A stretch of 50,819 nucleotides of DNA from Candidatus Woesearchaeota archaeon (GCA_964603295.1 CAZRUG010000005.1:1-50819); one strand, 5' to 3'; positions 2,225-42,738 are shown, counted from the stretch's first letter. Notes: generated by a model not told the origin, from the letters alone. Numbers and translations are program-made.

Positions 2225-3531
2225 TCCTTAAATTTAATCTCCTTATCTGGGCGGGGAACTTTTCTTAATTTAACACCAGCTTCATACAAGAATTTCATTG
2301 CATCTTTATCAGAATAGTCATGATAACTCACAACTTCTTTAATTCCAGAATTTGCAATCAACTTAGCGCAAACACCACAAGGAGTATGAGTGCAATACAT
2401 TGTAGCTCCAGAAACATTTACTCCATGAATTGCTGCCTGAATAATTGCATTTTGCTCTGCATGAATTGCCCTACAAGTTTCATGTCCATAACCAGAAGCA
2501 ATATTTTGCTCATCCTTTAAACATCCAATATCACAACAATTTGGCATTCCAGATGTAGCACCATTATAACCAGTTGTTAAAACTCTTTTATTCTTAACAA
2601 TAATTGCCCCAATATGATGTCTTAAACAAGAACTTCTTTCAGCAACTAATGCAGTTAATTTCATAAAATATTCATCCCATAAAAGTCTTCCAGAAACTTT
2701 CTTTTCTATAACCTCTTCTTTAATTTCTTCTCTTTGAACTTCTTCTTTCTTAACTTCTATCTCCCTCTCTTTAACATTTTCTTCTTTGTTTTCTAAAACA
2801 GCATCTTCTTTTTTTTCAATCAATTCACTACTTTCTCTTCCAGAAACCTCATTATTCTTAACCTCTTCAGCAGGAATAACTCCTCTCTGCCTCATCATCT
2901 CAATCAGTTGAGTGCCCTTGGCCACATTATCATCTCTTTGAACTTCCTTAGCCTGAATAGCCTCGTGCTTTGCCTTTTCTTTTTCCAAAATATCAACATA
3001 AACTTCTTTAATCTTCTTATATAACTCCTGAAAATCTTTATCATTTTTAATTACATAATCAGACATCTCAATACACTTAGATAAATTCTGCTTATTTGGA
3101 TTTTCATTTTCAAATTCTCTTTCTTCATTTTCCAAAAATTCTTCATAAGAAATATTATCTGTTTCACTTTGTCTAATTAAAACACGCGAGTAACGCACTT
3201 TTGCATCTGCATCAACAGCAATCAAATAACCACCTTTTTGTTTAATTGTCTCTGCTTCTCCAACAGTTCTAATACTTTCAATAATCACATCACCCCCAAC
3301 TGCTTTAGCCTTATCTATTAATTCTCTAATAATATAATCTGAAGAATTTTTTTGTCTTAAATCATTTGCAACTTCAACCATTGAATCTCTATTAACAGGC
3401 AAACCTCTTCGCTGAATCTCTTCAATTAAATAAGCACGAACTGAAAAATGTTTAAAACCCCCTTTTTCAACAAGATACTTTACAACACTTCCTTTTCCAG
3501 CACCTAAAGTTCCAGTTATTCCAATAATCAT
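2221..3531 (-). CDS. Fusion protein: P-loop nucleotide kinase (UPF0200/dephospho-CoA-kinase-like), an E/K-rich linker, and dCMP deaminase (ComEB-type)
   Basis: The N-terminus has MIIGITGTLGAGKGSV and IESIRTVGEAE..RYSRV. The linker is about 100 aa of E/K-rich sequence. The C-terminus has HAEQNAI...PCGVCAKLI, the deoxycytidylate deaminase zinc motif. Confidence 0.8.
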   Translation of the reverse strand: MIIGITGTLGAGKGSVVKYLVEKGGFKHFSVRAYLIEEIQRRGLPVNRDSMVEVANDLRQKNSSDYIIRELIDKAKAVGGDVIIESIRTVGEAETIKQKGGYLIAVDADAKVRYSRVLIRQSETDNISYEEFLENEEREFENENPNKQNLSKCIEMSDYVIKNDKDFQELYKKIKEVYVDILEKEKAKHEAIQAKEVQRDDNVAKGTQLIEMMRQRGVIPAEEVKNNEVSGRESSELIEKKEDAVLENKEENVKEREIEVKKEEVQREEIKEEVIEKKVSGRLLWDEYFMKLTALVAERSSCLRHHIGAIIVKNKRVLTTGYNGATSGMPNCCDIGCLKDEQNIASGYGHETCRAIHAEQNAIIQAAIHGVNVSGATMYCTHTPCGVCAKLIANSGIKEVVSYHDYSDKDAMKFLYEAGVKLRKVPRPDKEIKFKD

Positions 3532-3581
3532 ATAAGAAAAAACAAGAGACTCTTTTTAAGCATTTATGAGATAAAAGGAAA

Positions 3582-4289
3582 CTATATCCAACCACCAAGT
3601 AAACTAACTCCAACTAAAAACAACAAAATACCTGCAATTAAATGCAATCTTCGAATATTTCTTTCTTTCCAACCAGAAACATCTTCAACTTTTTTAAAAC
3701 CAAAATAAATTCCAAAAACAATCAAAGCCATTGGCAAAACAAAAAGAACATTATAATAAATTAACCAAGGCAATGCTTTAATTAAACCAATTTCAGACAA
3801 CAAACCTGAAACAATCACATATGGACCAATTGTACAAGGCAACAAAAACACAGTAACTAAAAATCCAATAATAAAAGCTCCTTTTGGAGAAGTTATTTCA
3901 CCAATAATTTTCTTTGCTTTAGGTCGCATCCACAAAGGCATTTCAGTTGCAATTCCTCCTGGCTTATAAACAAAATAATCCTTAATTTGCAAACCACCAA
4001 TTATCATTGCTAAAACAGCAAGGCCATTATAAAAATAACTTGAATAACCAGAAATAAATTCATTAACAGAATTAAACAAATAAACCATTATAATTCCATA
4101 AAAAATATATCCAATAAAAACAGAAGAAATAAAAGCCATTCCAGAATAAAAAACTTTTTTTGTTTTCTTTGGATCTTGCGAAGACATAACAGCAACAATA
4201 ACCATTGTTAAAACAGCAATTGCACACGGATTCACTGCATCAGCTAATGCCAAAGCTGTAATCCTCGCTAAACTAAAAACTTCTTCCAT
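3582..4289 (-). CDS. ccdA: CcdA/DsbD-family thiol-disulfide electron transporter (membrane)
   Basis: The protein is polytopic and carries the two signature cysteines in ADAVNPCAIAVL and LLPCTIGPY. Confidence 0.8.
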   Translation of the reverse strand: MEEVFSLARITALALADAVNPCAIAVLTMVIVAVMSSQDPKKTKKVFYSGMAFISSVFIGYIFYGIIMVYLFNSVNEFISGYSSYFYNGLAVLAMIIGGLQIKDYFVYKPGGIATEMPLWMRPKAKKIIGEITSPKGAFIIGFLVTVFLLPCTIGPYVIVSGLLSEIGLIKALPWLIYYNVLFVLPMALIVFGIYFGFKKVEDVSGWKERNIRRLHLIAGILLFLVGVSLLGGWI

Positions 4290-4290
4290 T

Positions 4291-4632
4291 TTAACAACCA
4301 GTTAATTCTTTTAATTCTTTAATAGACATAACCCCTGCATAAGTTGTTCCCTCAATTTCCCAAGCAGGAGTTCCTTGAATATGTCCACACTTAGACCAAT
4401 CAGTATTACAAAGAAAAATATTTAGGTATTCTGTATTATTTCCAAACATTGCTTCTTGATCTTCACAATGATGACAACCAATTTGTGTATAAAGAATAGA
4501 ATTTTCTCCAATACATTTTGCTGTTTCAACATCAGCATCAACACTTTTTGGCCAAAACATAATTACTAAAGCAATAACTAAAATTAATACAATAATTCCA
4601 ATTGTTAAATATTGTTGACCTCTCTTTTTCAT
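4291..4632 (-). CDS. Membrane-anchored thioredoxin-like CxxC oxidoreductase (VKOR-associated Trx-like type)
   Basis: An N-terminal TM helix is followed by GCHHCEDQEAMFG...GTPAWEIEGTTYAGVMS. This resembles the Trx-like domain fused to bacterial VKOR (WCPHCQDQKELFG..YPTWIINGRTYTG). It ends 1 nt before the ccdA start. Confidence 0.7.
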   Translation of the reverse strand: MKKRGQQYLTIGIIVLILVIALVIMFWPKSVDADVETAKCIGENSILYTQIGCHHCEDQEAMFGNNTEYLNIFLCNTDWSKCGHIQGTPAWEIEGTTYAGVMSIKELKELTGC

Positions 4633-4656
4633 TTTATAACTAAATAAATTATCTTT

Positions 4657-4971
4657 TTAAAATTTTTGTTGTTGCAATCCCTTATTTTTTTCTAATATAG
4701 AATCAGCTACTTTTTTAACCAAAACATTTTCACCTTTTAAAGAAATCTCTAATTCAGAAATATCAGTATGATTTTCTCCCCGACTAATTCCTTTAGTAAT
4801 TTCAATACAAAATTTTTTTCCAGAATAATATTCTTTCATACCTTCATCAGAATAAACTGCCTGAGCACTTCCAACTAAACCAGCATCTTGCAATTTTGCA
4901 ACTTCTTTATGCACACCCCTCACTAAACAACTATAATTATATTTCTTATTTGGAACCAAATAAATTTCCAT
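4657..4971 (-). CDS. Hypothetical small protein (possible paralogue of 4996-5298)
   Basis: From the ORF track. It shares YSGK...LxGxxxLVxxVxxxIxEK spacing with its neighbour. Confidence 0.45.
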   Translation of the reverse strand: MEIYLVPNKKYNYSCLVRGVHKEVAKLQDAGLVGSAQAVYSDEGMKEYYSGKKFCIEITKGISRGENHTDISELEISLKGENVLVKKVADSILEKNKGLQQQKF

Positions 4972-4995: not shown

Positions 4996-5298
4996 TTAAA
5001 TCTTACTAAACTTTTCCTCAATATCTTTGCAAACCATTTCAACCAAATCTTTTTTCCCTAAAAAATCTGTTCTAACTTGCCAAATTCTTGAACCGCCATT
5101 TTTTCTAACTAAAGAAACAACTAACTCCTTTCCACTATAAAAACAAGTTAATTGATTAGGACCTTCTCTTTGCTCTAAATCCTTTTTTATAATCCCAAAT
5201 TTTACTAAGTCATTAAAATATTCAATAAGATTAGAATACAAATCAGAATAATCTTTATCAGGATTTTGAGTAAAAAATCTTTTTGAACAATAAGTCAT
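4996..5298 (-). CDS. Hypothetical small protein (possible paralogue of 4657-4971)
   Basis: From the ORF track. It shows weak similarity to the neighbouring ORF. Confidence 0.45.
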   Translation of the reverse strand: MTYCSKRFFTQNPDKDYSDLYSNLIEYFNDLVKFGIIKKDLEQREGPNQLTCFYSGKELVVSLVRKNGGSRIWQVRTDFLGKKDLVEMVCKDIEEKFSKI

Positions 5299-5908: not shown

Positions 5909-7633
5909 TTACAATTTATTATTATCTTTCAAAAACTCATTAAGAAAAACAAAATAATCTGTCTTTTCATTCATTGCCATTTTTTCCACAATTAATTCAG
6001 GTGTTGAATTTGCTAATCTGCCTAAAACAGGATTATGGTCAACAATTAATTCAAAGTTTTCATCCAGACCTTTTGCTTCAATTCCATCAATTCGAGTTCT
6101 TTTAGGAAGTATTTTTTTAATCTCATGACCCAAATGAGTTGCAATAATTAAAAAGCAGTTCTTTTGAATATAATAATTTGCAGTAGCAGCAATAATATTT
6201 CCTGCAACACCTGGTTCAGTAACAGCCTCAATTTCATCTGCTAAAATTAAGGTCCTTTCACCAGGATTAATTCCAGACATTTGATTCAATAAATTCTCAA
6301 AAGCACCTTTGTTCATTGCACCCTTATTCTTAGCAAAATAATAAACATCTGTAAACAAAGGAATCTTAACATTACCAAAAACAGGCAAACCAATCTGCGA
6401 CAAAGAAATCAATTGAATCACATGTTCAATCAAAGTTGTCTTACCTCCAGAATTTGCACCAGTTAAAACAGAACATTTAATCTCTTGATTTAAATGAAAA
6501 GAAACAGGTTCTGCATTATCAATTAATAAATTTTTTGAAATATAAATTTGCAATTCATCTTCAATTAAAGGAAACTTCATTTCCCCTTCGACAAATTTAG
6601 AAATACCTGCAATAAAATCAAAAAACAATAATTCATTTTTTAAACTATCTAATTGATTAGGAATTTTCATTAAATCATTTGAATGCATTTTAATTTCTTC
6701 AGCAACTTTAGAAAATTTATTTGAATTATAATCCTTAATGTATTTATTTAACTCAACTTCATCAATTGAAACAGGAATTTCTAAATTTAAAACTTGCTTA
6801 GGTATTTTACTTTCAAAAACAGCTTCTTCAATAACTTGTTTAAGTTGCTCTGGAATTGCTTTTTTATTCAAAAGCGCAACAACAGATTCACCAGAAATTG
6901 TCAATTGTTTAATTTTCTCATTTATTTTTTCATTAATTTCCTCGACCTTTTTTTCAACTTCATCATAACTTAAATCAACAATCTCATCTTCAGAAATTAA
7001 ATTAAACATTGAAAAAAGTTTTTTCACAATATCTTGAATATCTTCTAAAACATCATTATTTTTTAATAATTGAATATTAGTTTTCCACGAAGACAAAATC
7101 TCCAAATACCTCTCTAAATAAGCCTCATCAATTGAATTCAAAAAAACAGCTTGAGGCAATTGCTCCAAAGCCAAGGCAAACTCATTGCATTCTAAAACTT
7201 GAACTAAATCAATTTCTTGCAAACTCACTATATCATTTTCAGAAACCAATAATTTGCAAGGACAACCTTTTGATTTTAATTCATTAAAAATATCTGAATC
7301 TTCTGTAACAACTAAAACATCATACTTTGGAGACCAATTTTCTCTTGGAAAATTAAGCTCCTTTAAAAAATTATTTTCAAATTTAGAAATTGATTTAAAA
7401 AATTCTTGTCTTTTTTTCAAATATTCAAACCCAACACCCAAATAAAAATAATTAAATAAATTAGAAGTATCTGCAAATACAAAATTCTGTGCAATCTTTT
7501 GAAGCAATTTATTATGAACAACCTTTGCATCACGAGTTTTGTAAATTGTTTTTAATGATTTTAAAGAAGTCTTTGTTTTATTAAATGGTGATAATTCATT
7601 CTCTTCAATAAACTGCATTAATTTTACTTTCAT
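5909..7633 (-). CDS. MutS-family ATPase lacking a recognisable mismatch-binding domain (MutS2/MutS5-like)
   Basis: It has a Walker A motif (VLTGANSGGKTTL) and LILADEIEAVTEPGVAGNII, as in MutS domain V. I do not recognise the N-terminal 380 aa. CTTTAAAA lies 22-29 nt upstream of the ATG. Confidence 0.7.
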   Translation of the reverse strand: MKVKLMQFIEENELSPFNKTKTSLKSLKTIYKTRDAKVVHNKLLQKIAQNFVFADTSNLFNYFYLGVGFEYLKKRQEFFKSISKFENNFLKELNFPRENWSPKYDVLVVTEDSDIFNELKSKGCPCKLLVSENDIVSLQEIDLVQVLECNEFALALEQLPQAVFLNSIDEAYLERYLEILSSWKTNIQLLKNNDVLEDIQDIVKKLFSMFNLISEDEIVDLSYDEVEKKVEEINEKINEKIKQLTISGESVVALLNKKAIPEQLKQVIEEAVFESKIPKQVLNLEIPVSIDEVELNKYIKDYNSNKFSKVAEEIKMHSNDLMKIPNQLDSLKNELLFFDFIAGISKFVEGEMKFPLIEDELQIYISKNLLIDNAEPVSFHLNQEIKCSVLTGANSGGKTTLIEHVIQLISLSQIGLPVFGNVKIPLFTDVYYFAKNKGAMNKGAFENLLNQMSGINPGERTLILADEIEAVTEPGVAGNIIAATANYYIQKNCFLIIATHLGHEIKKILPKRTRIDGIEAKGLDENFELIVDHNPVLGRLANSTPELIVEKMAMNEKTDYFVFLNEFLKDNNKL

Positions 7634-39255: not shown

Positions 39256-41412
39256 TTATTGATTTTCACTCAAACCTTTTCTATCACGAATCTTCTTAAT
39301 TACATCGTCTTGCATTGCTGTAGGAATCTTTTCAAATTGCTGTTCAAGAAGAGAACTTGTTCCACGACCTTCTGTTGCACTTCTCAAGTCATTTGACCAA
39401 CCAATCATTTCAGCAACAGGAATCTTTGCCTTTAATTCAGCAGCACCATTTTCTTGTTTCATATCAAGCATTTGACCCCTCTTACTACTTACAAGTTTTG
39501 TAGCTGCTCCCATAAAGTCTTCAGGAACATCAATAACATGAATCTGTAATGGTTCTAAAATTGCGGGCCCCCCTTCCTTCATTGCTTGCTTAATTGCATC
39601 TCTAACAGCAGGATAAATCTGTGCAGGACCTCTGTGAATAGCATCTTCGTGAAGTTTAATATCAGCCAAAGTAACTTTCATTTTCATACAAGGCTCACGA
39701 GCCAAAGGACCTTCATTCATAACCATCTCAAAAGCATCTAAAACCATTTCAATAACTTCTCCAATATGAACTTCTCCCCGAGTTTCATCAAAAAACATGT
39801 TTCCTTTGTAAATATGCTTAACATCCCTAATCTCATCACTACCCCATCCTTGTTCAGAAAGATATTTTGTTACTGCATCAGATTTTTTCTTAATTCTTCC
39901 TTCAGGTAAATCCCCACTTCGAATTGCCTCAAATAATTCATCTTCCAAAGGTTCAACTTTAATAAAGAAACTATTATGCTTATTTGGTGAACGTCCTTCT
40001 CTAACAGGCGATTCCTTTGAAGCTGTTTCTCTATAAACAATAATTGGTGCAGAAGTTCTAACTTCTAAACCTTTTTCAGTCTTAATTCTATTTTCAATAA
40101 TTTCCAAGTGCAATTCACCCATACCAGAAAGTAAGGACTCCCCAGTTTGTTCATTAATTTGAACTTTAATAGAGGGGTCTTCTTTAGCAACTTGTTTTAA
40201 AACTTCAACAAGCTTTGGCAAATCAGCAGCTTTAGTTGCTTCAATAGATTTTGTAACAACAGGCTCAAACAAGTGAGTAATTGCTTCAAAAGGCTCCATC
40301 TCATTCTTAGAAACTGTTTCACCAGCAACAACATCTTTCAAACCTACAACTCCTACAATATTACCTGCAATAGCTTCTTCAACAGTAATTCTTTGAGCAC
40401 CTTTGTAAATTGAAACTTGTTGAACACGAACTTTTTGTTTTGCAATATTCATATAAACATCATCACCTTGTTTTAAACTACCTGAAAATAAACGTCCAGC
40501 AGCAACTTCTCCAGCATGTTTATCTACAACAATCTTAATTGGAATAAAAACAGGTTCTCCATCTGGATTACAATTCATTAAATCTTTTCCAATCTCAGAA
40601 TTTTCATCTCCTTTCCAGATTTTAGGAATTCTATATTTCTGAGCATCAACAGGATTTGGATGGTGCTTAATGCTCATGTTTAAAACAACTTCATGAATTG
40701 GAGCTTTCTTTGCTAATTCCTTATGATTATCATTTTCATAAGCTTCAATAACATCTTTAAAAGTAATTCCATTTGCTTTCATATAAGGAAAACTCAATCC
40801 CCAATTATGAAAAGCAGAACCAAAAGCAACAGTTCCATCCTGAACAGACACTTGCCATTTTTCCTTATAACCTTCTGGAGCAATTTGTGCAATTAAATTA
40901 TTAACATGATCTATAATTTTAACAAAACGAGCTTGCATATCTTCAGGAGTTAATTTAACTTCTTTAATTAACCTATCAACTTTATTGATAAATAAAACAG
41001 GTTTAACTAATTCTTTTAATGCTTGTCTAAGAACAGTTTCAGTTTGGGGCATAACACCTTCAACAGCACATGATAAAACAACGCATCCGTCTACTGCACG
41101 CATCGCACGAGTAACATCACCTCCAAAATCAACATGCCCAGGAGTATCAATTAAATTAATTAAATAATTCTCTCCACTTAATTTATGAATCATAGAAACT
41201 GAAGCTGAATCAATTGTAATTCCTCGAGAAGCTTCATCTTCGTGAAAATCCAATGCTCTTTGTTTACCTGCTGTTTCTGAAGACAACATTCCAGCACCAG
41301 CCAAAAGATTATCTGAAAAAGTAGTTTTACCATGGTCAATATGCGCTGCAATAGCTATATTTCTAATTCTATCTTGCTTCCTCATTAAATCAACAACTTT
41401 AATTTCGCTCAT
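39256..41412 (-). CDS. fusA: Translation elongation factor EF-2
   Basis: It contains AHIDHGKTT, DTPGHVDF and NKVD. The diphthamide-site motif HEDAIHRGPAQ is present, with the His593 codon at 39634-39636. Confidence 0.97.
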   Translation of the reverse strand: MSEIKVVDLMRKQDRIRNIAIAAHIDHGKTTFSDNLLAGAGMLSSETAGKQRALDFHEDEASRGITIDSASVSMIHKLSGENYLINLIDTPGHVDFGGDVTRAMRAVDGCVVLSCAVEGVMPQTETVLRQALKELVKPVLFINKVDRLIKEVKLTPEDMQARFVKIIDHVNNLIAQIAPEGYKEKWQVSVQDGTVAFGSAFHNWGLSFPYMKANGITFKDVIEAYENDNHKELAKKAPIHEVVLNMSIKHHPNPVDAQKYRIPKIWKGDENSEIGKDLMNCNPDGEPVFIPIKIVVDKHAGEVAAGRLFSGSLKQGDDVYMNIAKQKVRVQQVSIYKGAQRITVEEAIAGNIVGVVGLKDVVAGETVSKNEMEPFEAITHLFEPVVTKSIEATKAADLPKLVEVLKQVAKEDPSIKVQINEQTGESLLSGMGELHLEIIENRIKTEKGLEVRTSAPIIVYRETASKESPVREGRSPNKHNSFFIKVEPLEDELFEAIRSGDLPEGRIKKKSDAVTKYLSEQGWGSDEIRDVKHIYKGNMFFDETRGEVHIGEVIEMVLDAFEMVMNEGPLAREPCMKMKVTLADIKLHEDAIHRGPAQIYPAVRDAIKQAMKEGGPAILEPLQIHVIDVPEDFMGAATKLVSSKRGQMLDMKQENGAAELKAKIPVAEMIGWSNDLRSATEGRGTSSLLEQQFEKIPTAMQDDVIKKIRDRKGLSENQ

Positions 41413-41445
41413 TTTTTCCTCGAATATTAATTAATTGAAAAATTA

Positions 41446-41459
41446 GTTTTTAAACTTTG
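41446..41459 (-). promoter_or_regulatory. fusA TATA-like element (CAAAGTTTAAAAAC on the minus strand)
   Basis: It lies 34-47 nt upstream of the ATG. It resembles the elements before rps12, nusA and rpoH. Confidence 0.4.
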
Positions 41460-41464
41460 TTATA

Positions 41465-41875
41465 TTAATTAATCAAATGTCTTTGCACCAAATCTTTAAT
41501 AGAATAAATTCCTTCTCTTTGACATAAAGAAATATAATCAAATCTTGTTAAAAAAGCTTCTACAATATTTGTTGGTTCTAAATCTCCAAAAGCTCTTAGA
41601 GGAGTATGATGCAAAATATCATTACAATTTTTAACTTCATAAGCTTCTGTATTCAAACCACTAATAACAGACCAACAAGCTCGATGTTTTCCATTAAGAA
41701 TATATCCTTTATCTGTAATTAAAATTCCTTCTGAAGACATAACAAACTGAGATTTATCAAAATTACTTTTTCTTGTCTTAACCCTCCCCAATTGATTTAG
41801 CTTATTCATATCAAGTTCGTACCAGTGTGGAATTAACTTTTCACATTCTTCTGATGTTAATACTAACTTTCTCAT
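41465..41875 (-). CDS. Hypothetical protein with a possible ParB/sulfiredoxin-fold nuclease-like motif (ILNGKHRACW)
   Basis: From the ORF track. TTTATAAA at 41897-41904 lies 22-29 nt upstream. GYILNGKHRA resembles the DGHHR motif of ParB-like nucleases. The domain call rests on pattern matching only. Confidence 0.4.
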   Translation of the reverse strand: MRKLVLTSEECEKLIPHWYELDMNKLNQLGRVKTRKSNFDKSQFVMSSEGILITDKGYILNGKHRACWSVISGLNTEAYEVKNCNDILHHTPLRAFGDLEPTNIVEAFLTRFDYISLCQREGIYSIKDLVQRHLIN

Positions 41876-41905
41876 TAAAAATTCAGAAAGAATTATTTTA
41901 TAAAA

Positions 41906-41938
41906 TTAACGCACAACATCAGCTTGTTTTTCTGCTTT
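41906..41938 (-). pseudogene. rps7: Duplicated remnant of the rps7 3' end (encodes KAEKQADVVR-stop)
   Basis: 26 of 33 nt are identical to 42121-42153, including the 16-nt core CATCAGCTTGTTTTTC. It is in frame and keeps the stop codon. The upstream frame is closed by TGA after 5 more codons. Confidence 0.6.
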
Positions 41939-42103
41939 ATGCGAGCGACTGTGTCAGCGAGTATCCGCAGATTTATCGAGGACTTTCAAAATTTTATATT
42001 TTGATTTATGCGAGCGACTCATTAAAATGACATTGTCGATTTTGATGAATGAGAAGTTTACTTCGCTTTGTGTCAGCGAGTATCCGCAGATTTATCGAGG
42101 ACT
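41936..42103. repeat. GC-rich direct-repeat block: a 15-nt repeat x2 and a 35-nt repeat x2
   Basis: TTTATGCGAGCGACT occurs at 41936-41950 and 42005-42019. TGTGTCAGCGAGTATCCGCAGATTTATCGAGGACT occurs at 41950-41984 and 42069-42103. An AT hairpin (TCAAAAT-TTTAT-ATTTTGA) lies at 41986-42004. Confidence 0.85.
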
Positions 42104-42120
42104 ATAGGCGGAAAACAGGC

Positions 42121-42738
42121 TTACCTTGCAGCATCAGCTTGTTTTTCAGCTTCAACTTTTTTTCTTAAAGCAAGACTATCTTGGTTTTCTTCATAAGCCA
42201 TAACAATCTCATCTGTTAAAGCTTGATGCAAAGATTTCTTTTTACCAAAAGATTTATCAGAAGCACCATGTGCAAGATTTTTTAATGCAATATTCACTCT
42301 TCTAAGAGGCGCAACTTCTGCAGCCTGAGGATAACGAGCACCACCATATTCAACAACAGTAACTTCATCACGAGGAGCAGAATTCTCAATTGCTTTGACT
42401 AAAACAGCAACAGGATTTTTTCCAGTTTTCTTTTCAACAAGTTTCAAAGCATCAAGAACAATAGTCATATTCTTTGTATATTTACCAGTTGATTTTTTTT
42501 GAATTCTATGTTTTTTACCTCGATGACCTGCAACAGAAAGTTTATTCATTAATCTCTCCACAACATTAACTTTAGTTTGTCCAAACCTCTGAACATTTCT
42601 ACCATGACTTTTAACTGCTAATTGGGGATTTAAATTAATTACATTTTTTAATCCAGGATCTTCAATAACAATCTCTTTAACACCCCATAAATCAAATAAA
42701 TTAAATTCAGTTGCTGTTTCTTGTTTTTGTTCTTCCAT
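42121..42738 (-). CDS. rps7: 30S ribosomal protein S7 (uS7)
   Basis: Typical archaeal uS7 sequence (e.g. VVEYGGARYPQAAEVAPLRRVNIALKNL). Confidence 0.95.
   Translation of the reverse strand: MEEQKQETATEFNLFDLWGVKEIVIEDPGLKNVINLNPQLAVKSHGRNVQRFGQTKVNVVERLMNKLSVAGHRGKKHRIQKKSTGKYTKNMTIVLDALKLVEKKTGKNPVAVLVKAIENSAPRDEVTVVEYGGARYPQAAEVAPLRRVNIALKNLAHGASDKSFGKKKSLHQALTDEIVMAYEENQDSLALRKKVEAEKQADAAR

Follow-up and report, generated by a model that had tools for sequence, protein, structure and literature searches.

A duplicated rps7 end and a dispersed repeat at a candidate recombination scar in the rps7-EF-2 spacer of a DPANN archaeon

Homology-facilitated illegitimate recombination was reportedly described in naturally transformable bacteria by de Vries and Wackernagel in 2002, and it is not known to have been shown experimentally outside bacteria. 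In fungal mitochondria, mobile ORFs mediate the replacement of C-termini, for example in atp6 of Allomyces and in atp6, atp9, cox2 and nad3 of Glomus; the gene core is followed by the foreign C-terminus, the endonuclease ORF and the native C-terminus, and the LAGLIDADG or GIY-YIG endonuclease ORF between the two ends drives the event (PMC3630166). Casposons of Thaumarchaeota integrate most often at the 3' end of ef-2, where tandem integrations have also been described (PMC6563490). A family 1 casposase integrates DNA of 7 nt to about 4 kb at a target of leader plus repeat, with a 13-bp duplication (PMC8464041).

The locus compared here with these systems lies in a stretch of 50,819 nucleotides (the window, GC 0.30) whose host is an AT-rich Pacearchaeota/Woesearchaeota-type archaeon (DPANN). 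The features described below are on the minus strand of the window unless mentioned otherwise. The rps7 (uS7) gene at 42121-42738, taken from the ORF list, codes for 205 aa (Pfam Ribosomal_S7, E 1.9e-30) and is 55-72% identical to the rps7 of 80 Pace/Woesearchaeota MAGs, while the gene of aEF-2, the archaeal fusA homologue, occupies 39256-41412 (718 aa; Pfam GTP_EFTU, EFG_III, EFG_IV and EFG_C). A previous reading of this DNA from the sequence alone (the sequence-only reading) had located the rps7 stop codon at 42121-42123 and the fusA start at 41412, with 708 nt in between, and all of this was found. Its premise that the two genes are normally adjacent was wrong, as the gap ranges from 5 to 2544 nt across 63 relatives and is larger than 300 nt in 43 of them; moreover, EF-2 has its own conserved promoter-like box (AAAGTTTAAAAACTAATTTTTCAA, 41435-41458), which is matched with at most 6 mismatches and at the same distance in 8 of the 20 relatives examined. 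The rps7-EF-2 spacer is a hot spot throughout the lineage. In the window it holds a 136-aa gene (ORF136, 41465-41875) with the TATA-like box that had been assigned to it, TTTATAAA at 41897-41904, which is -29 to -22 from its ATG (41875). Judged by sequence only, the position of this box suggests a leaderless ORF136 transcript, for which it would serve as promoter. Similar boxes are located immediately 3' of the rps7 stop in relatives.

The coding end of rps7 is present twice in the window. The end in use, T1 (42121-42153), is in frame with rps7 and reads E-AEKQADAAR-stop, and the displaced end, T2 (41906-41938), reads K-AEKQADVVR-stop. The two are identical at 26 of 33 nt with a 16-nt perfect core, GAAAAACAAGCTGATG, and the stop codon is in register, just as the sequence-only reading had reported. 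Over the last 30 nt the match is 24/30, above the maximum of 22/30 that was attained twice in a control with the reversed query on 968 ORF ends. This duplication, with the upstream copy in frame, supports the previous suggestion that a segment entered at the rps7 3' end. The codon differences include two synonymous ones, AGG<->CGT, which is a two-step change, and GCT<->GCA, together with two Ala->Val replacements, and T2 taken alone could be an in-situ duplicate that has since drifted. T2 abuts the TATA-like box of ORF136, as ordinary rps7 ends abut the next promoter in relatives, and between T1 and T2 there is only 183 nt of non-coding repeat with no ORF.

The contig is derived from a metagenome, and two relatives (L035 and L058), which like the other relatives are MAGs, have N-gaps exactly in such scars, so an assembly artefact (a chimera of strains, or a repeat that was collapsed or expanded) has to be considered. 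The check for mis-assembly across 41.8-42.2 kb, which had been proposed earlier, was run on the Logan unitigs, an independent k=31 assembly, of the sole run holding the sequence, a microbial-mat metagenome. The unitigs span every junction at a uniform 114-122x, crossing both T1-linker-repeat and repeat-T2-ORF, and the 35-mer described below is at 249x, equal to two copies. The sole path through all the unitigs is the assembled arrangement, with no alternative joints at comparable depth. Two joints ('skips 953/959') considered as an empty-site allele came from low-depth contigs of other organisms. The same scar architecture was also obtained in independent studies with different assemblers, including a single-cell genome (L054). 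An artefact is very improbable on this evidence, and the arrangement is upheld.

The 215-bp block at 41906-42120 is a two-unit array of a repeat, M1-M2, in which M1 is a small variable hairpin and M2 is the 28-nt motif following it. After the rps7 stop there is a 17-nt linker (42104-42120) that supplies the 5' arm (UCCGC) of the M1 hairpin. Unit A starts with a 35-mer (42069-42103) containing the M1 hairpin region and the 5' half of M2 (GGATACTCGCTGACACA), and the 3' part of this 35-mer matches the M2 5' half of other contigs. The M2 of unit A is split by a 49-nt insert (42020-42068) and ends with a 15-mer (42005-42019), which is the M2 3' half (AGTCGCTCGCATAAA) and an invariant block in the M2 alignment (A2). 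Comparison of units A and B with 13 intact M2 copies places the insert after GACACA and before AGTCGC, where the intact copies have the ACA loop; L056 has a 23-nt insert at the equivalent position, and a search for sequences similar to the 49-nt insert elsewhere found none. The units are separated by a spacer (41985-42004) with an AT hairpin and T-run (UCAAAAUAUAAAAUUUUGA), the hairpin UCAAAAU/AUUUUGA being at 41986-42004, and in unit B (41936-41984) M1-M2 is intact, with the 35-mer and 15-mer contiguous. A third M2 3' half with the hairpin exists elsewhere in the genome, in a 49-nt unitig (112x) that equals 41986-42019 with 1 mismatch and continues into a variant M2 5' half. As a side observation, plus-strand 42104-42119 is an exact inverted 16-mer of the conserved rps12 'IGGKQG' codons in L005, a match without extension (E about 0.004 in a 0.7-Mb set) that may be due to chance.

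Both repeats are exact, the 35-nt one at 41950-41984 and 42069-42103 and the 15-nt one at 41936-41950 and 42005-42019 (extending to 21 nt at 90%). Each occurs twice in the window, and 0 of 100 shuffles produced a match; in copy B the two repeats share 1 nt, and in copy A 49 nt separate them. These repeats and the AT hairpin are located where the sequence-only reading had put them. Its description of the block as GC-rich is valid when compared to the window and to the neighbouring spacers (0.37-0.45 versus 0.30 and 0.20-0.29) but not in absolute terms. The MITE-like interpretation is abandoned because there are no terminal inverted repeats; an inverted repeat bounding the block or its units was sought, and only small internal hairpins were found.

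The GC-richer repeats belong to a genuine dispersed repeat family. M2 exists in at least 7 other AT-rich DPANN contigs from several metagenomes, with at least 20 copies in 8 contigs and 3 copies seen in this genome. When copies of the 35-mer and 15-mer were searched for in 85 related loci, as had been proposed, none was found as such, and the M2 junction alone is conserved. Unit B has 90-97% identity over 29-40 nt to copies in L086, L088, L094 and L097, alignment A2 (13 copies) has 20 invariant columns, and M2 is 94% identical over 32 nt between genomes with an EF-2 identity of only 63.7% (aa) or 69.5% (nt). M2 is located 2-40 nt past a same-strand stop codon in 8 of 10 sites, and forms tandem arrays of 2 units in L088 and 4 units in L097. 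It follows stop codons with no gene-end duplication in L086, L088 and L097, while in the window, L056, L058 and L094 it is followed by a copy of the end of the upstream gene. The M2/gene-end junctions lie in microhomology (AAAG, ATGAAG or TAG); for example, the T2-M2 tail joint in the window runs through the ambiguous stretch AAAGCAGAAA, the M2 tail at other loci being AAAGAAGAAA. L056 contains serial end copies that are progressively decayed, with T1 intact, T2 intact as a peptide and both T3 and T4 degenerate, and L058 contains three identical units of end and repeat.

The hairpin and T-run led us to guess that M1-M2 might be a 3'-end module ending or stabilising the rps12-rps7 transcript, in which case ORF136 and EF-2 would be transcribed from their own promoters. 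RNAalifold gives only an invariant 4-6-bp stem for M2 with no covariation, and the folding energy of the 226-nt block is no better than that of shuffles on either strand (z -1.3 and -2.0). Rfam 15 gave no match in the window at the gathering score (at permissive thresholds, only chance-level ones within the region, E>1), and no match on six M2-bearing loci except one ordinary tRNA; a tRNA search with ARAGORN found none. A search for RNA-seq runs containing the region likewise gave none. Two M2 patterns were searched against IMG/VR, and BLAST was run against phage and plasmid collections, with no match to viruses or plasmids. Several identities of the repeat were rejected. A C/D-box sRNA was dismissed as the C-like box in the window consists of rps7 Asp-Ala codons and is absent in relatives, and by eye no boxes are conserved across copies. 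A CRISPR array was rejected because the 'spacers' of L097 and L088 recur as well, and the two units in the window are unevenly spaced. A role as parS-like site for ORF136 was also discarded, with no ORF136 homologue in the M2-bearing loci and no M2 in 44.8 kb around seven homologues.

ORF136 is a real gene. It belongs to a small family that is confined to DPANN and has a predicted ParB/Srx-like fold. A word-indexed protein search gave no homologue, and the exhaustive HMMER scan alone found them, yielding 39 cluster representatives. Within the core ILNGKHRA, G62 and R65 do not vary among the 38 sequences of alignment A1 and I59, N61 and H64 are conserved in at least 90% of them, and there is also a family-specific N-terminal PHW...ELD segment. 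The AlphaFold2 model has a pLDDT of 97.5 (41 for the single-sequence model), and ILNGKHRA sits at strand 58-61 and helix 63-72. In the ParB/Srx fold, the canonical position of the (D/G)GxxR-type motif is the N-terminal end of the helix that follows the central strand. Like members of this superfamily, ORF136 has a conserved Gly-x-His-Arg at the strand-to-helix turn, comparable to the DGxHR and GxxR motifs and of the (D/G)GxxR type; unlike them, it has Asn for the usual Asp, and no helix-turn-helix or dimerisation domain was identified. The top 10 Foldseek matches in PDB are all ParB/Srx folds but weak (E 0.076-1.3, TM 0.32-0.46), the best being Atu1540 (2hwj), the pNOB8 ParB N-domain (5k5d), sulfiredoxin (7lj1, 3hy2) and Caulobacter ParB (7bm8), and those in BFVD are mostly phage 'ParB/Sulfiredoxin domain' proteins (E 3e-3 to 0.1, probability up to 1.0). 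The DGHHR-like segment pointed out by the sequence-only reading is the conserved core of the family with ParB/Srx as its best fold match, but the match is weak and has no counterpart at the sequence level: none of the 38 members has a Pfam match at E<=1, ParBc included, and a profile search of PDB sequences with the family returned nothing relevant.

On the other hand, the same reading had treated ORF136 as the agent or cargo of the insertion and as part of a nuclease cassette, and neither role was borne out. The gene lies downstream of T2 and not between the two ends, and no match to homing-endonuclease, integrase, phage or defence families was found in Pfam, PHROGs or PADLOC. Its homologues appear in five or more unrelated contexts with no M2 or gene-end duplication nearby, and in one subclade the synteny ArgRS-ORF-300 aa is kept in three genomes, like that of an ordinary gene. 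We take ORF136 to be an occupant of the hot spot in its own right, either older than the scar or independent of it.

Gene-end duplications recur among relatives, in about 9 of 76 loci at rps7 and 9 of 58 at EF-2, with others at rps12. The duplicates vary from 12 to 51 nt, the joint is confined to the last 6-17 codons of the gene, and the inserts range from 0-9 nt up to 2.1 kb of cargo genes. Some duplications have no M2, either with 0-78-nt inserts or with cargo genes. The cargo ORFs are a hydrolase, a radical-SAM protein, an ABC transporter and unknowns; for example, L003 has the radical SAM, L071 the hydrolase and a 476-aa ORF with three end copies, and L023 and L062 have small ORFs. No integrase, casposase, homing endonuclease or terminal inverted repeat was found inside any scar examined, and neither Cas1 nor a family B polymerase was found in the L003 and L071 inserts or in the window scar. 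The end copy further downstream is the resident one in L035 and L074, because it keeps the native tight junction with the ATG of the next gene. The differing codons of T1 and T2 in 7 relatives are 38 synonymous versus 1 non-synonymous (P about 1e-25), including switches of Ser TCN<->AGY and Arg CGT<->AGA; some pairs were found by peptide pattern, which inflates the synonymous share, and the pairs from the nucleotide scan only give 24 versus 0. With 38 of 39 differences synonymous, both copies therefore evolved as working gene ends. The pattern points to DNA having arrived from another lineage with its own gene end, and to the two end copies in relatives being often of different lineages. The identical copies in L057, L058, L003 and L071 fit target-site duplication as well as the route proposed below.

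We lean towards considering the block at 41906-42120 as a genuine recombination scar, where a foreign gene end and repeat were joined onto the resident rps7. A short incoming DNA would have brought an rps7 end of its own, stop codon included (T1), as well as the donor sequence after the stop, namely the two-unit M1-M2 array proximal to the stop codon. This piece may have joined the resident rps7 about 10 codons before the stop, at a microhomology with the M2 tail, leaving rps7 intact and displacing the resident end (T2) to a downstream position, still directly next to the promoter of the following gene. T1 would be the foreign copy if the window follows the pattern of L035 and L074. In Pace/Woesearchaeota, the terminal 15-40 nt of the rps7, EF-2 and rps12 genes would recurrently act as a joint for adding DNA of any length, with new material entering next to the gene and older ends decaying further downstream. 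The likeliest route would be recombination that uses the conserved gene as its anchor and a microhomology to close the far end, comparable to homology-facilitated illegitimate recombination or to Campbell-type insertion via short gene-end homology. Two features look too site-specific for plain illegitimate recombination: the narrow position of the joint, and the right boundary, which coincides with the M2 tail in four loci. Neither an empty-site allele nor a donor was found. As scars of this kind recur at rps7, EF-2 and rps12 ends in many relatives, the uptake of foreign DNA with the essential genes unbroken seems to follow a regular route in these cells, one not described so far.

The scar can also be read as the work of a trans-acting site-specific integrase (a tyrosine recombinase or a casposase of the Cas1 type, with its gene elsewhere in the genome or on an element since lost) that inserts at the gene end. 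The duplicated end would be a target-site duplication or att site, M2 a recognition or arm site, and the arrays would grow gene-proximally as at the CRISPR leader. The target preference and tandem integrations of thaumarchaeal casposons (PMC6563490) agree with this, a family 1 casposase accepts 7 nt to about 4 kb (PMC8464041) and the inserts here run from 0-9 nt to 2.1 kb, and the narrow stop-proximal window of the duplicated ends, the four loci with identical copies and the polar decay in L056 are as expected. M2 also always abuts the downstream copy in its four loci, and is invariant across deep lineages as a protein-binding site would be. Nevertheless, no insert examined contains Cas1, PolB, an integrase or terminal inverted repeats, the duplicate length is not fixed, many scars are without M2, and M2 exists after stops with no duplication. 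Synonymous-only divergence is unlike a target-site duplication followed by neutral decay and would require later allele replacement. We regard this reading as unlikely, though it deserves some weight. A bolder proposal is put forward only tentatively, as a long shot worth keeping in view: an undescribed recombinase-guided insertion system of Pace/Woesearchaeota, in which the last 15-40 nt of rps7, EF-2 or rps12 are a re-usable docking site, M2 is the recognition element, and the incoming DNA brings a replacement end.

Purely local events need no foreign or mobile DNA: replication slippage or unequal crossing-over would have duplicated the rps7 end and repeat, and the copy drifted. Tandem repeat arrays (L097, L088) and the three identical units in L058 are compatible with this, and the two Ala->Val of T2 are C->T-type changes expected from decay in an AT-biased genome. 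However, the spacing differs among the three repeat pairs (215, 119 and 69 nt) and their order is not a simple tandem, Arg is kept across the two changes of AGG<->CGT, almost all codon differences in relatives are synonymous, the same 28-nt motif exists in deeply divergent genomes, and cargo genes lie between copies. These make a local origin doubtful. We give equally little credence to the remnant of a homing-endonuclease cassette of the 'mobile ORF' type, whose endonuclease gene was since deleted or is ORF136 itself. The order of foreign then native end with synonymous-only differences is the layout of Allomyces and Glomus (PMC3630166), some members of the ParB/Srx superfamily resembled by ORF136 are nucleases, and a LAGLIDADG-like ORF is present in the rps7-EF-2 gap of L018. 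That ORF is not flanked by rps7-end copies, however, and the cargo of the relatives' scars (hydrolase, radical SAM, unknown ORFs) is not endonucleases. In the window, only the non-coding repeat separates the ends, and ORF136 is outside both with its own promoter, has homologues unconnected with duplications or M2, and matches nothing in Pfam, PHROGs, PADLOC or PDB sequences.

The genomes of DPANN archaea are tiny, and their routes of gene gain are little known. On the reading as a recombination scar, the spacers after rps7, EF-2 and rps12 would be a lineage-wide entry point for DNA, from a few bases to a two-gene cargo, with the essential gene preserved by the second end copy, and the scar offers a searchable sequence signature for mapping horizontal transfer among uncultivated archaea. 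If the recombinase-guided system were true, housekeeping genes would carry gene-proximal polar arrays of 'gene end + insert', built of miniature elements without integrase, in formal resemblance to leader-proximal spacer uptake in CRISPR or to cassette capture in integrons. In addition, the conservation of the 28-nt M2 exceeds that of even the most conserved proteins in these organisms, and a protein family of small size with a predicted ParB/Srx fold is restricted to DPANN.

When compared to homology-facilitated illegitimate recombination, the scars share the anchor in a conserved gene, the join at a microhomology of a few bases and the addition of arbitrary foreign DNA beside the anchor, but that process predicts neither the narrow stop-proximal joint nor the recurrent M2-tail boundary. 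The repeat is a short extragenic hairpin unit in multiple copies, single or in tandem. It resembles the REP/BIME repeats of bacteria in its length (about 50-nt units), in its position just past stops in sense orientation, in occurring singly or clustered, and in a plausible action on the mRNA 3' end. REPs differ from it in being species-specific, high-copy and linked to RAYT transposase with no gene-end duplication association, whereas M2 is low-copy, near-invariant to 64% EF-2 identity and has a core without compensatory changes.

The elements and casposons of Thaumarchaeota (PMC6563490; PMC8464041) likewise target the ef-2 3' end, have flanking direct repeats and re-use the site in tandem; in one case the stop-codon region is replaced by element-derived sequence, and in vitro the inserts start from 7 nt. 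Their several-kb size, Cas1/PolB or integrase, terminal inverted repeats and fixed 13-15-bp duplication were not found here, where the duplicates are variable in length, some of foreign coding type, and rps7 and rps12 are also targets. Gene-end direct repeats flank the insert as in integrative elements, but neither the window scar nor the cargo of relatives encodes an integrase. When the fungal mobile ORFs are considered, the tandem of putatively foreign and native 3' ends is shared, but an endonuclease ORF between the copies, of a known family, is not; in its place the window has a non-coding repeat of 183 nt and relatives have 0-78 nt or ordinary cargo genes, and the duplicated piece is much shorter (about 5-17 codons) and on an archaeal chromosome. 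In both, an incoming foreign 3' end would preserve the reading frame of an essential gene, with the native end left as an unexpressed relic downstream, the ends differ mainly synonymously, and a horizontal origin is the likely reading. The scars link casposons that target ef-2 in Thaumarchaeota with mobile ORFs that replace C-termini in fungal mitochondria.

The window has a GC content of 30% and comes from an AT-rich DPANN archaeon, and its rps7 is 55-72% identical to the rps7 of 80 genomes labelled Woesearchaeota, Pacearchaeota or Nanoarchaeota. The minus-strand order is RNA polymerase subunit A, a NusA-like gene, rps12, rps7 (42121-42738), a 708-nt spacer and aEF-2 (39256-41412, with its ATG at 41412). 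In operon sense (minus strand), the rps7 end in use with its stop (T1, 42153-42121) is followed by a 17-nt linker (42120-42104), copy A of a 35-mer (42103-42069), a 49-nt segment (42068-42020), copy A of a 15-mer (42019-42005), an AT hairpin with a T-run (42004-41985), copy B of the 35-mer (41984-41950) and, overlapping it by 1 nt, copy B of the 15-mer (41950-41936). A second rps7 end with its stop (T2) lies at 41938-41906, followed by TTTATAAA (41904-41897), a 136-aa ORF (ORF136, 41875-41465) and a promoter-like box (41458-41435).

Both repeats are exact; each occurs twice in 50.8 kb, and neither was found in 100 shuffles. T2 and T1 agree at 26 of 33 positions; a core of 16 nt is perfect, and the stop codons are in register. 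For the final 30 nt the score is 24/30. As a control, the final 30 nt of each of 968 ORFs, reversed, were compared with the 500 nt downstream, and the highest score was 22/30, which occurred twice. The assembly was checked with independent k=31 unitigs from the one public run containing the sequence, a microbial-mat metagenome. They span every junction at 114-122x, and the 35-mer depth of 249x corresponds to two copies. Since the assembled order is the sole path that uses each unitig once, mis-assembly is very unlikely. In an extra 49-nt unitig (112x), the 15-mer and the AT hairpin (1 mismatch) run into a variant start of the 35-mer, and therefore at least one further repeat copy exists elsewhere in this genome. 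The scar described by the sequence-only reading (block 41906-42120) is thus confirmed by the exact repeats, the T2 score above control and the independent unitigs. Its coordinates and counts were all correct; for the block that it called GC-rich, GC is indeed raised, but the enrichment is only modest (0.37-0.45).

The linker itself holds ATAGGCGGAAAACAGG (window 42104-42119, plus strand), 3' of the rps7 stop. Inverted, this sequence is identical to the conserved IGGKQG codons of rps12 in the relative L005; the same codons read ATTGGTGGAAAACAGG in the window's own rps12. The match has no extension (E ~0.004 in a 0.7-Mb set); it may be filler DNA that was captured, a partner for long-range pairing inside the rps12-rps7 transcript, or a chance match.

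Duplicated gene ends recur among the related loci compared with the window (L numbers). After the rps7 stop of L056 come three units containing the 28-nt motif M2, each directly followed by a copy of the rps7 end; the first copy still encodes the intact peptide (KKNEAEKQADSAR*), and the second and third are increasingly degenerate. L058 carries three identical units of EF-2 end, 14 nt and M2 after EF-2, and L094 has EF-2, M2 and a decayed EF-2 end. Systematic nucleotide scanning, a search by peptide pattern and a long-range scan turned up further cases, without M2, for rps7 (L003, L035, L054, L057, L058, L063, L064, L071), EF-2 (L007, L009, L023, L024, L049, L057, L062, L066), rps12 (L074) and a 442-aa ORF (L070). 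With the M2-bearing cases included, duplications occur in about 9 of 76 relatives at rps7 and about 9 of 58 at EF-2. The insert between copies ranges from 0-9 nt up to cargo genes. For example, a 585-aa radical-SAM gene lies between identical 16-mers in L003, and small ORFs lie between the copies in L023 and L062. L071 contains a serine hydrolase, a 476-aa ORF and three rps7-end copies (4374-4393, 5021-5040 and 6516-6535), and the promoter-like 23-mer 3' of the rps7 end is duplicated too; together, the copies and cargo ORFs form a cassette-like array. Both cargo ORFs terminate within or right at an rps7-end copy, the first in frame (...RDSAR*). In L035 and L074 the stop of the downstream copy still lies tight against the ATG of the next gene, as in the native state, and so this copy is the resident one there and the new material was inserted upstream.

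A homologous 22-25-nt insert, CTT(C)GCC(C/G)AAGCGT(G/C)GTC, lies between the rps7 stop and an rps7-end copy with synonymous changes only in L054 (4592-4613) and L063 (4619-4643), which are unrelated genomes, one of them from a single cell; it is a second small insert type distinct from M2. Runs of N marking scaffold gaps fall exactly within the scars of two MAGs (L058:7351-7448 and L035:4605-4700). Assemblers break there, and therefore gene-end scars are probably under-counted in MAGs.

The way in which the two copies differ bears on their origin. Among seven relatives with differing copies, 38 of 39 differing codons are synonymous, including switches between Ser TCN and AGY and between Arg CGT and AGA, when 21% would be expected by chance (binomial P ~1e-25); this count is biased by pairs found by peptide pattern, but the pairs that nucleotide identity alone detected still show 24 synonymous and no non-synonymous differences. 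Neutral drift of a relic copy cannot yield the near-all-synonymous pattern in the relatives. Both copies were selected as gene ends, which points to one of them having come from another lineage. The evidence from the window is weaker, with two synonymous differences, one a two-step AGG<->CGT, and also two Ala->Val changes that look like decay.

When the 15-mer/35-mer junction was used as a scan pattern on public metagenome contigs, it recurred in AT-rich contigs of several other metagenomes. High-GC matches had no extension past the pattern. A profile search of all loci gave further M2 copies, two of them among the rps7 relatives. In operon sense the core reads GAT(A/G)CTCGC(C/T)GAC-ACA-GTCGCT(T)CGCAT(A/G)(A)(A), with 20 invariant columns in 13 copies from 7 contigs. 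It is preceded by a small hairpin, M1, whose sequence varies among copies while the pairing, as seen by eye and without statistics, is kept (CCAC/GTGG, CTGC/GCAG, TTGGAA/TTCCAA, UUUC/GAAA, and UCCGC/GCGGA in window unit A). M1-M2 sits 2-40 nt 3' of a same-strand stop codon at 8 of 10 sites, is often followed by a T-run, and forms tandem arrays of 2 units in L088 and 4 in L097. Window copy B is an intact unit, and in copy A the M2 is split at its ACA loop by 49 nt, as is one in L056 by 23 nt. M2 with AAAGAAGAAATAA as its tail is seen again at unrelated loci in two genomes (L086 and L088), and therefore M2 is carried along with part of its 3' flank. Over 32 nt, the M2 copies of the window and L094 are 94% identical, and their EF-2 only 63.7% in protein and 69.5% in DNA. 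Since M2 shows no compensatory changes, matches no Rfam family and is absent from viral contigs, phages and plasmids, what is conserved is the sequence itself, which would fit a protein-binding site or an element that spread recently.

Several inserts open with bases complementary to the gene's last codons, so that a hairpin encloses the stop codon by eye; these include the EF-2 ends of L009, L066 and L024 and the L086:3201 region, where it reads GAGGGAGT-N13(TAA)-ACTCCCTC. A 67-aa GTG ORF on the plus strand (window 41827-42030) crosses both repeat units and reads …LYASDCVSEYPQIYRGL…; it is most likely spurious, because the M2 copies differ by a 1-nt indel (TCGC vs TTCGC).

The spacer had been regarded as an exception to adjacent rps7 and fusA genes. 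Its length is not exceptional, because the distance ranges from 5 to 2544 nt in the 63 relatives with both genes and exceeds 300 nt in 43 of them; in L067 the spacer is 3.7 kb with an ABC transporter cassette. The spacers hold many unrelated small ORFs, mainly on the same strand (39 of 67 are singletons), and EF-2's own conserved promoter-like box is present in the closer relatives and the window. Across L001-L080, the spacer varies from 5 nt to more than 3.7 kb and marks a gene-gain hot spot inside a core translation operon. Larger cargo includes an adenylate/guanylate cyclase domain (L077), DUF6498 (L032), the ABC transporter (L067), the radical-SAM protein (L003) and hydrolases (L071, L080). 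In L018, from a Pacearchaeota MAG, a 315-aa ORF (6174-7121) with a WhiA-type LAGLIDADG domain (E 1e-5) lies in the gap directly upstream of EF-2, with no rps7-end copy flanking it; it may be a free-standing homing endonuclease. L021 and L077, deposited as 'Patescibacteria group bacterium' and 'bacterium', encode an archaeal rps7 and aEF-2 that are 64-80% identical to the window's, and the bacterial titles are probably a binning or labelling error.

ORF136 is a genuine gene. HMMER, run exhaustively on 1.84 billion representatives, gave a full-length alignment of 39 family members, the named ones from Nanoarchaeia and Pacearchaeota MAGs, with the pattern PPIL...ILNGKHRA and invariant G62 and R65. 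No match was found in Pfam, PDB sequences, PHROGs or PADLOC. For the AlphaFold2 model from this alignment (pLDDT 97.5), ParB/Srx-fold proteins rank top, weakly, in both Foldseek libraries: the best PDB match is 2hwj (E 0.076, TM 0.46), and BFVD matches, from E 3e-3 upward, are mainly 'ParB/Sulfiredoxin domain' proteins. The ParB-like assignment of the sequence-only reading probably holds, and we conclude that ORF136 is a stand-alone, probably ParB/Srx-like protein predicted to bind nucleotides or nucleic acids. Its proposed tie to the insertion event was wrong: homologues occur after ArgRS (synteny kept in three genomes), between NUDIX and RuBisCO, beside a Cas4-like nuclease, between PPDK and a Fic-like gene, and after an M50 peptidase, and neither M2 nor a gene-end duplication was found near them in these contexts. 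None of the 67 spacer ORFs of the relatives is related to it. We conclude that ORF136 occupies the hot spot and is not part of the scar. In L101, a 396-aa PD-(D/E)XK/Cas4-like nuclease (3485-4675) lies on the same strand 35 nt downstream of the homologue; no other context hints at a partner in DNA processing.

The original proposal holds in that a segment entered at the rps7 end, which was regenerated; the MITE reading of the repeats fails, as no terminal inverted repeats bound the block or its units. Where M2 meets a gene-end copy, the joint falls in a few bases that the M2 tail has in common with the gene: AAAG.AGAAA (window), AAAG (L058), ATGAAG (L056) and TAG (L094). Because the inserts examined contain no integrase, Cas1, polymerase, recognisable endonuclease or terminal inverted repeats, we favour recombination of incoming chromosomal DNA. 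Such DNA would be anchored in the conserved gene, and either joining at microhomology or a crossover in short homology within the gene end would close its far side. Only products in which the gene and the downstream promoter both stayed intact would survive selection. The joints are confined to a narrow zone and the M2 tail is used repeatedly; this route explains neither, and because of both a site-specific enzyme acting in trans may be involved instead.

More broadly, gene ends in DPANN genomes are recurrently duplicated, with divergence of the coding type, and these genomes also carry a deeply conserved 28-mer close to stop codons; we found no earlier description of either. Among known systems, thaumarchaeal casposons target the 3' end of ef-2 (PMC6563490), and a family 1 casposase inserts DNA of 7 nt to ~4 kb and thereby duplicates 13 bp (PMC8464041). 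The most similar architecture on record is that of fungal mitochondrial genes, in which a foreign C-terminus, a mobile ORF and the native C-terminus follow one another, but there an endonuclease gene lies between the two copies (PMC3630166).
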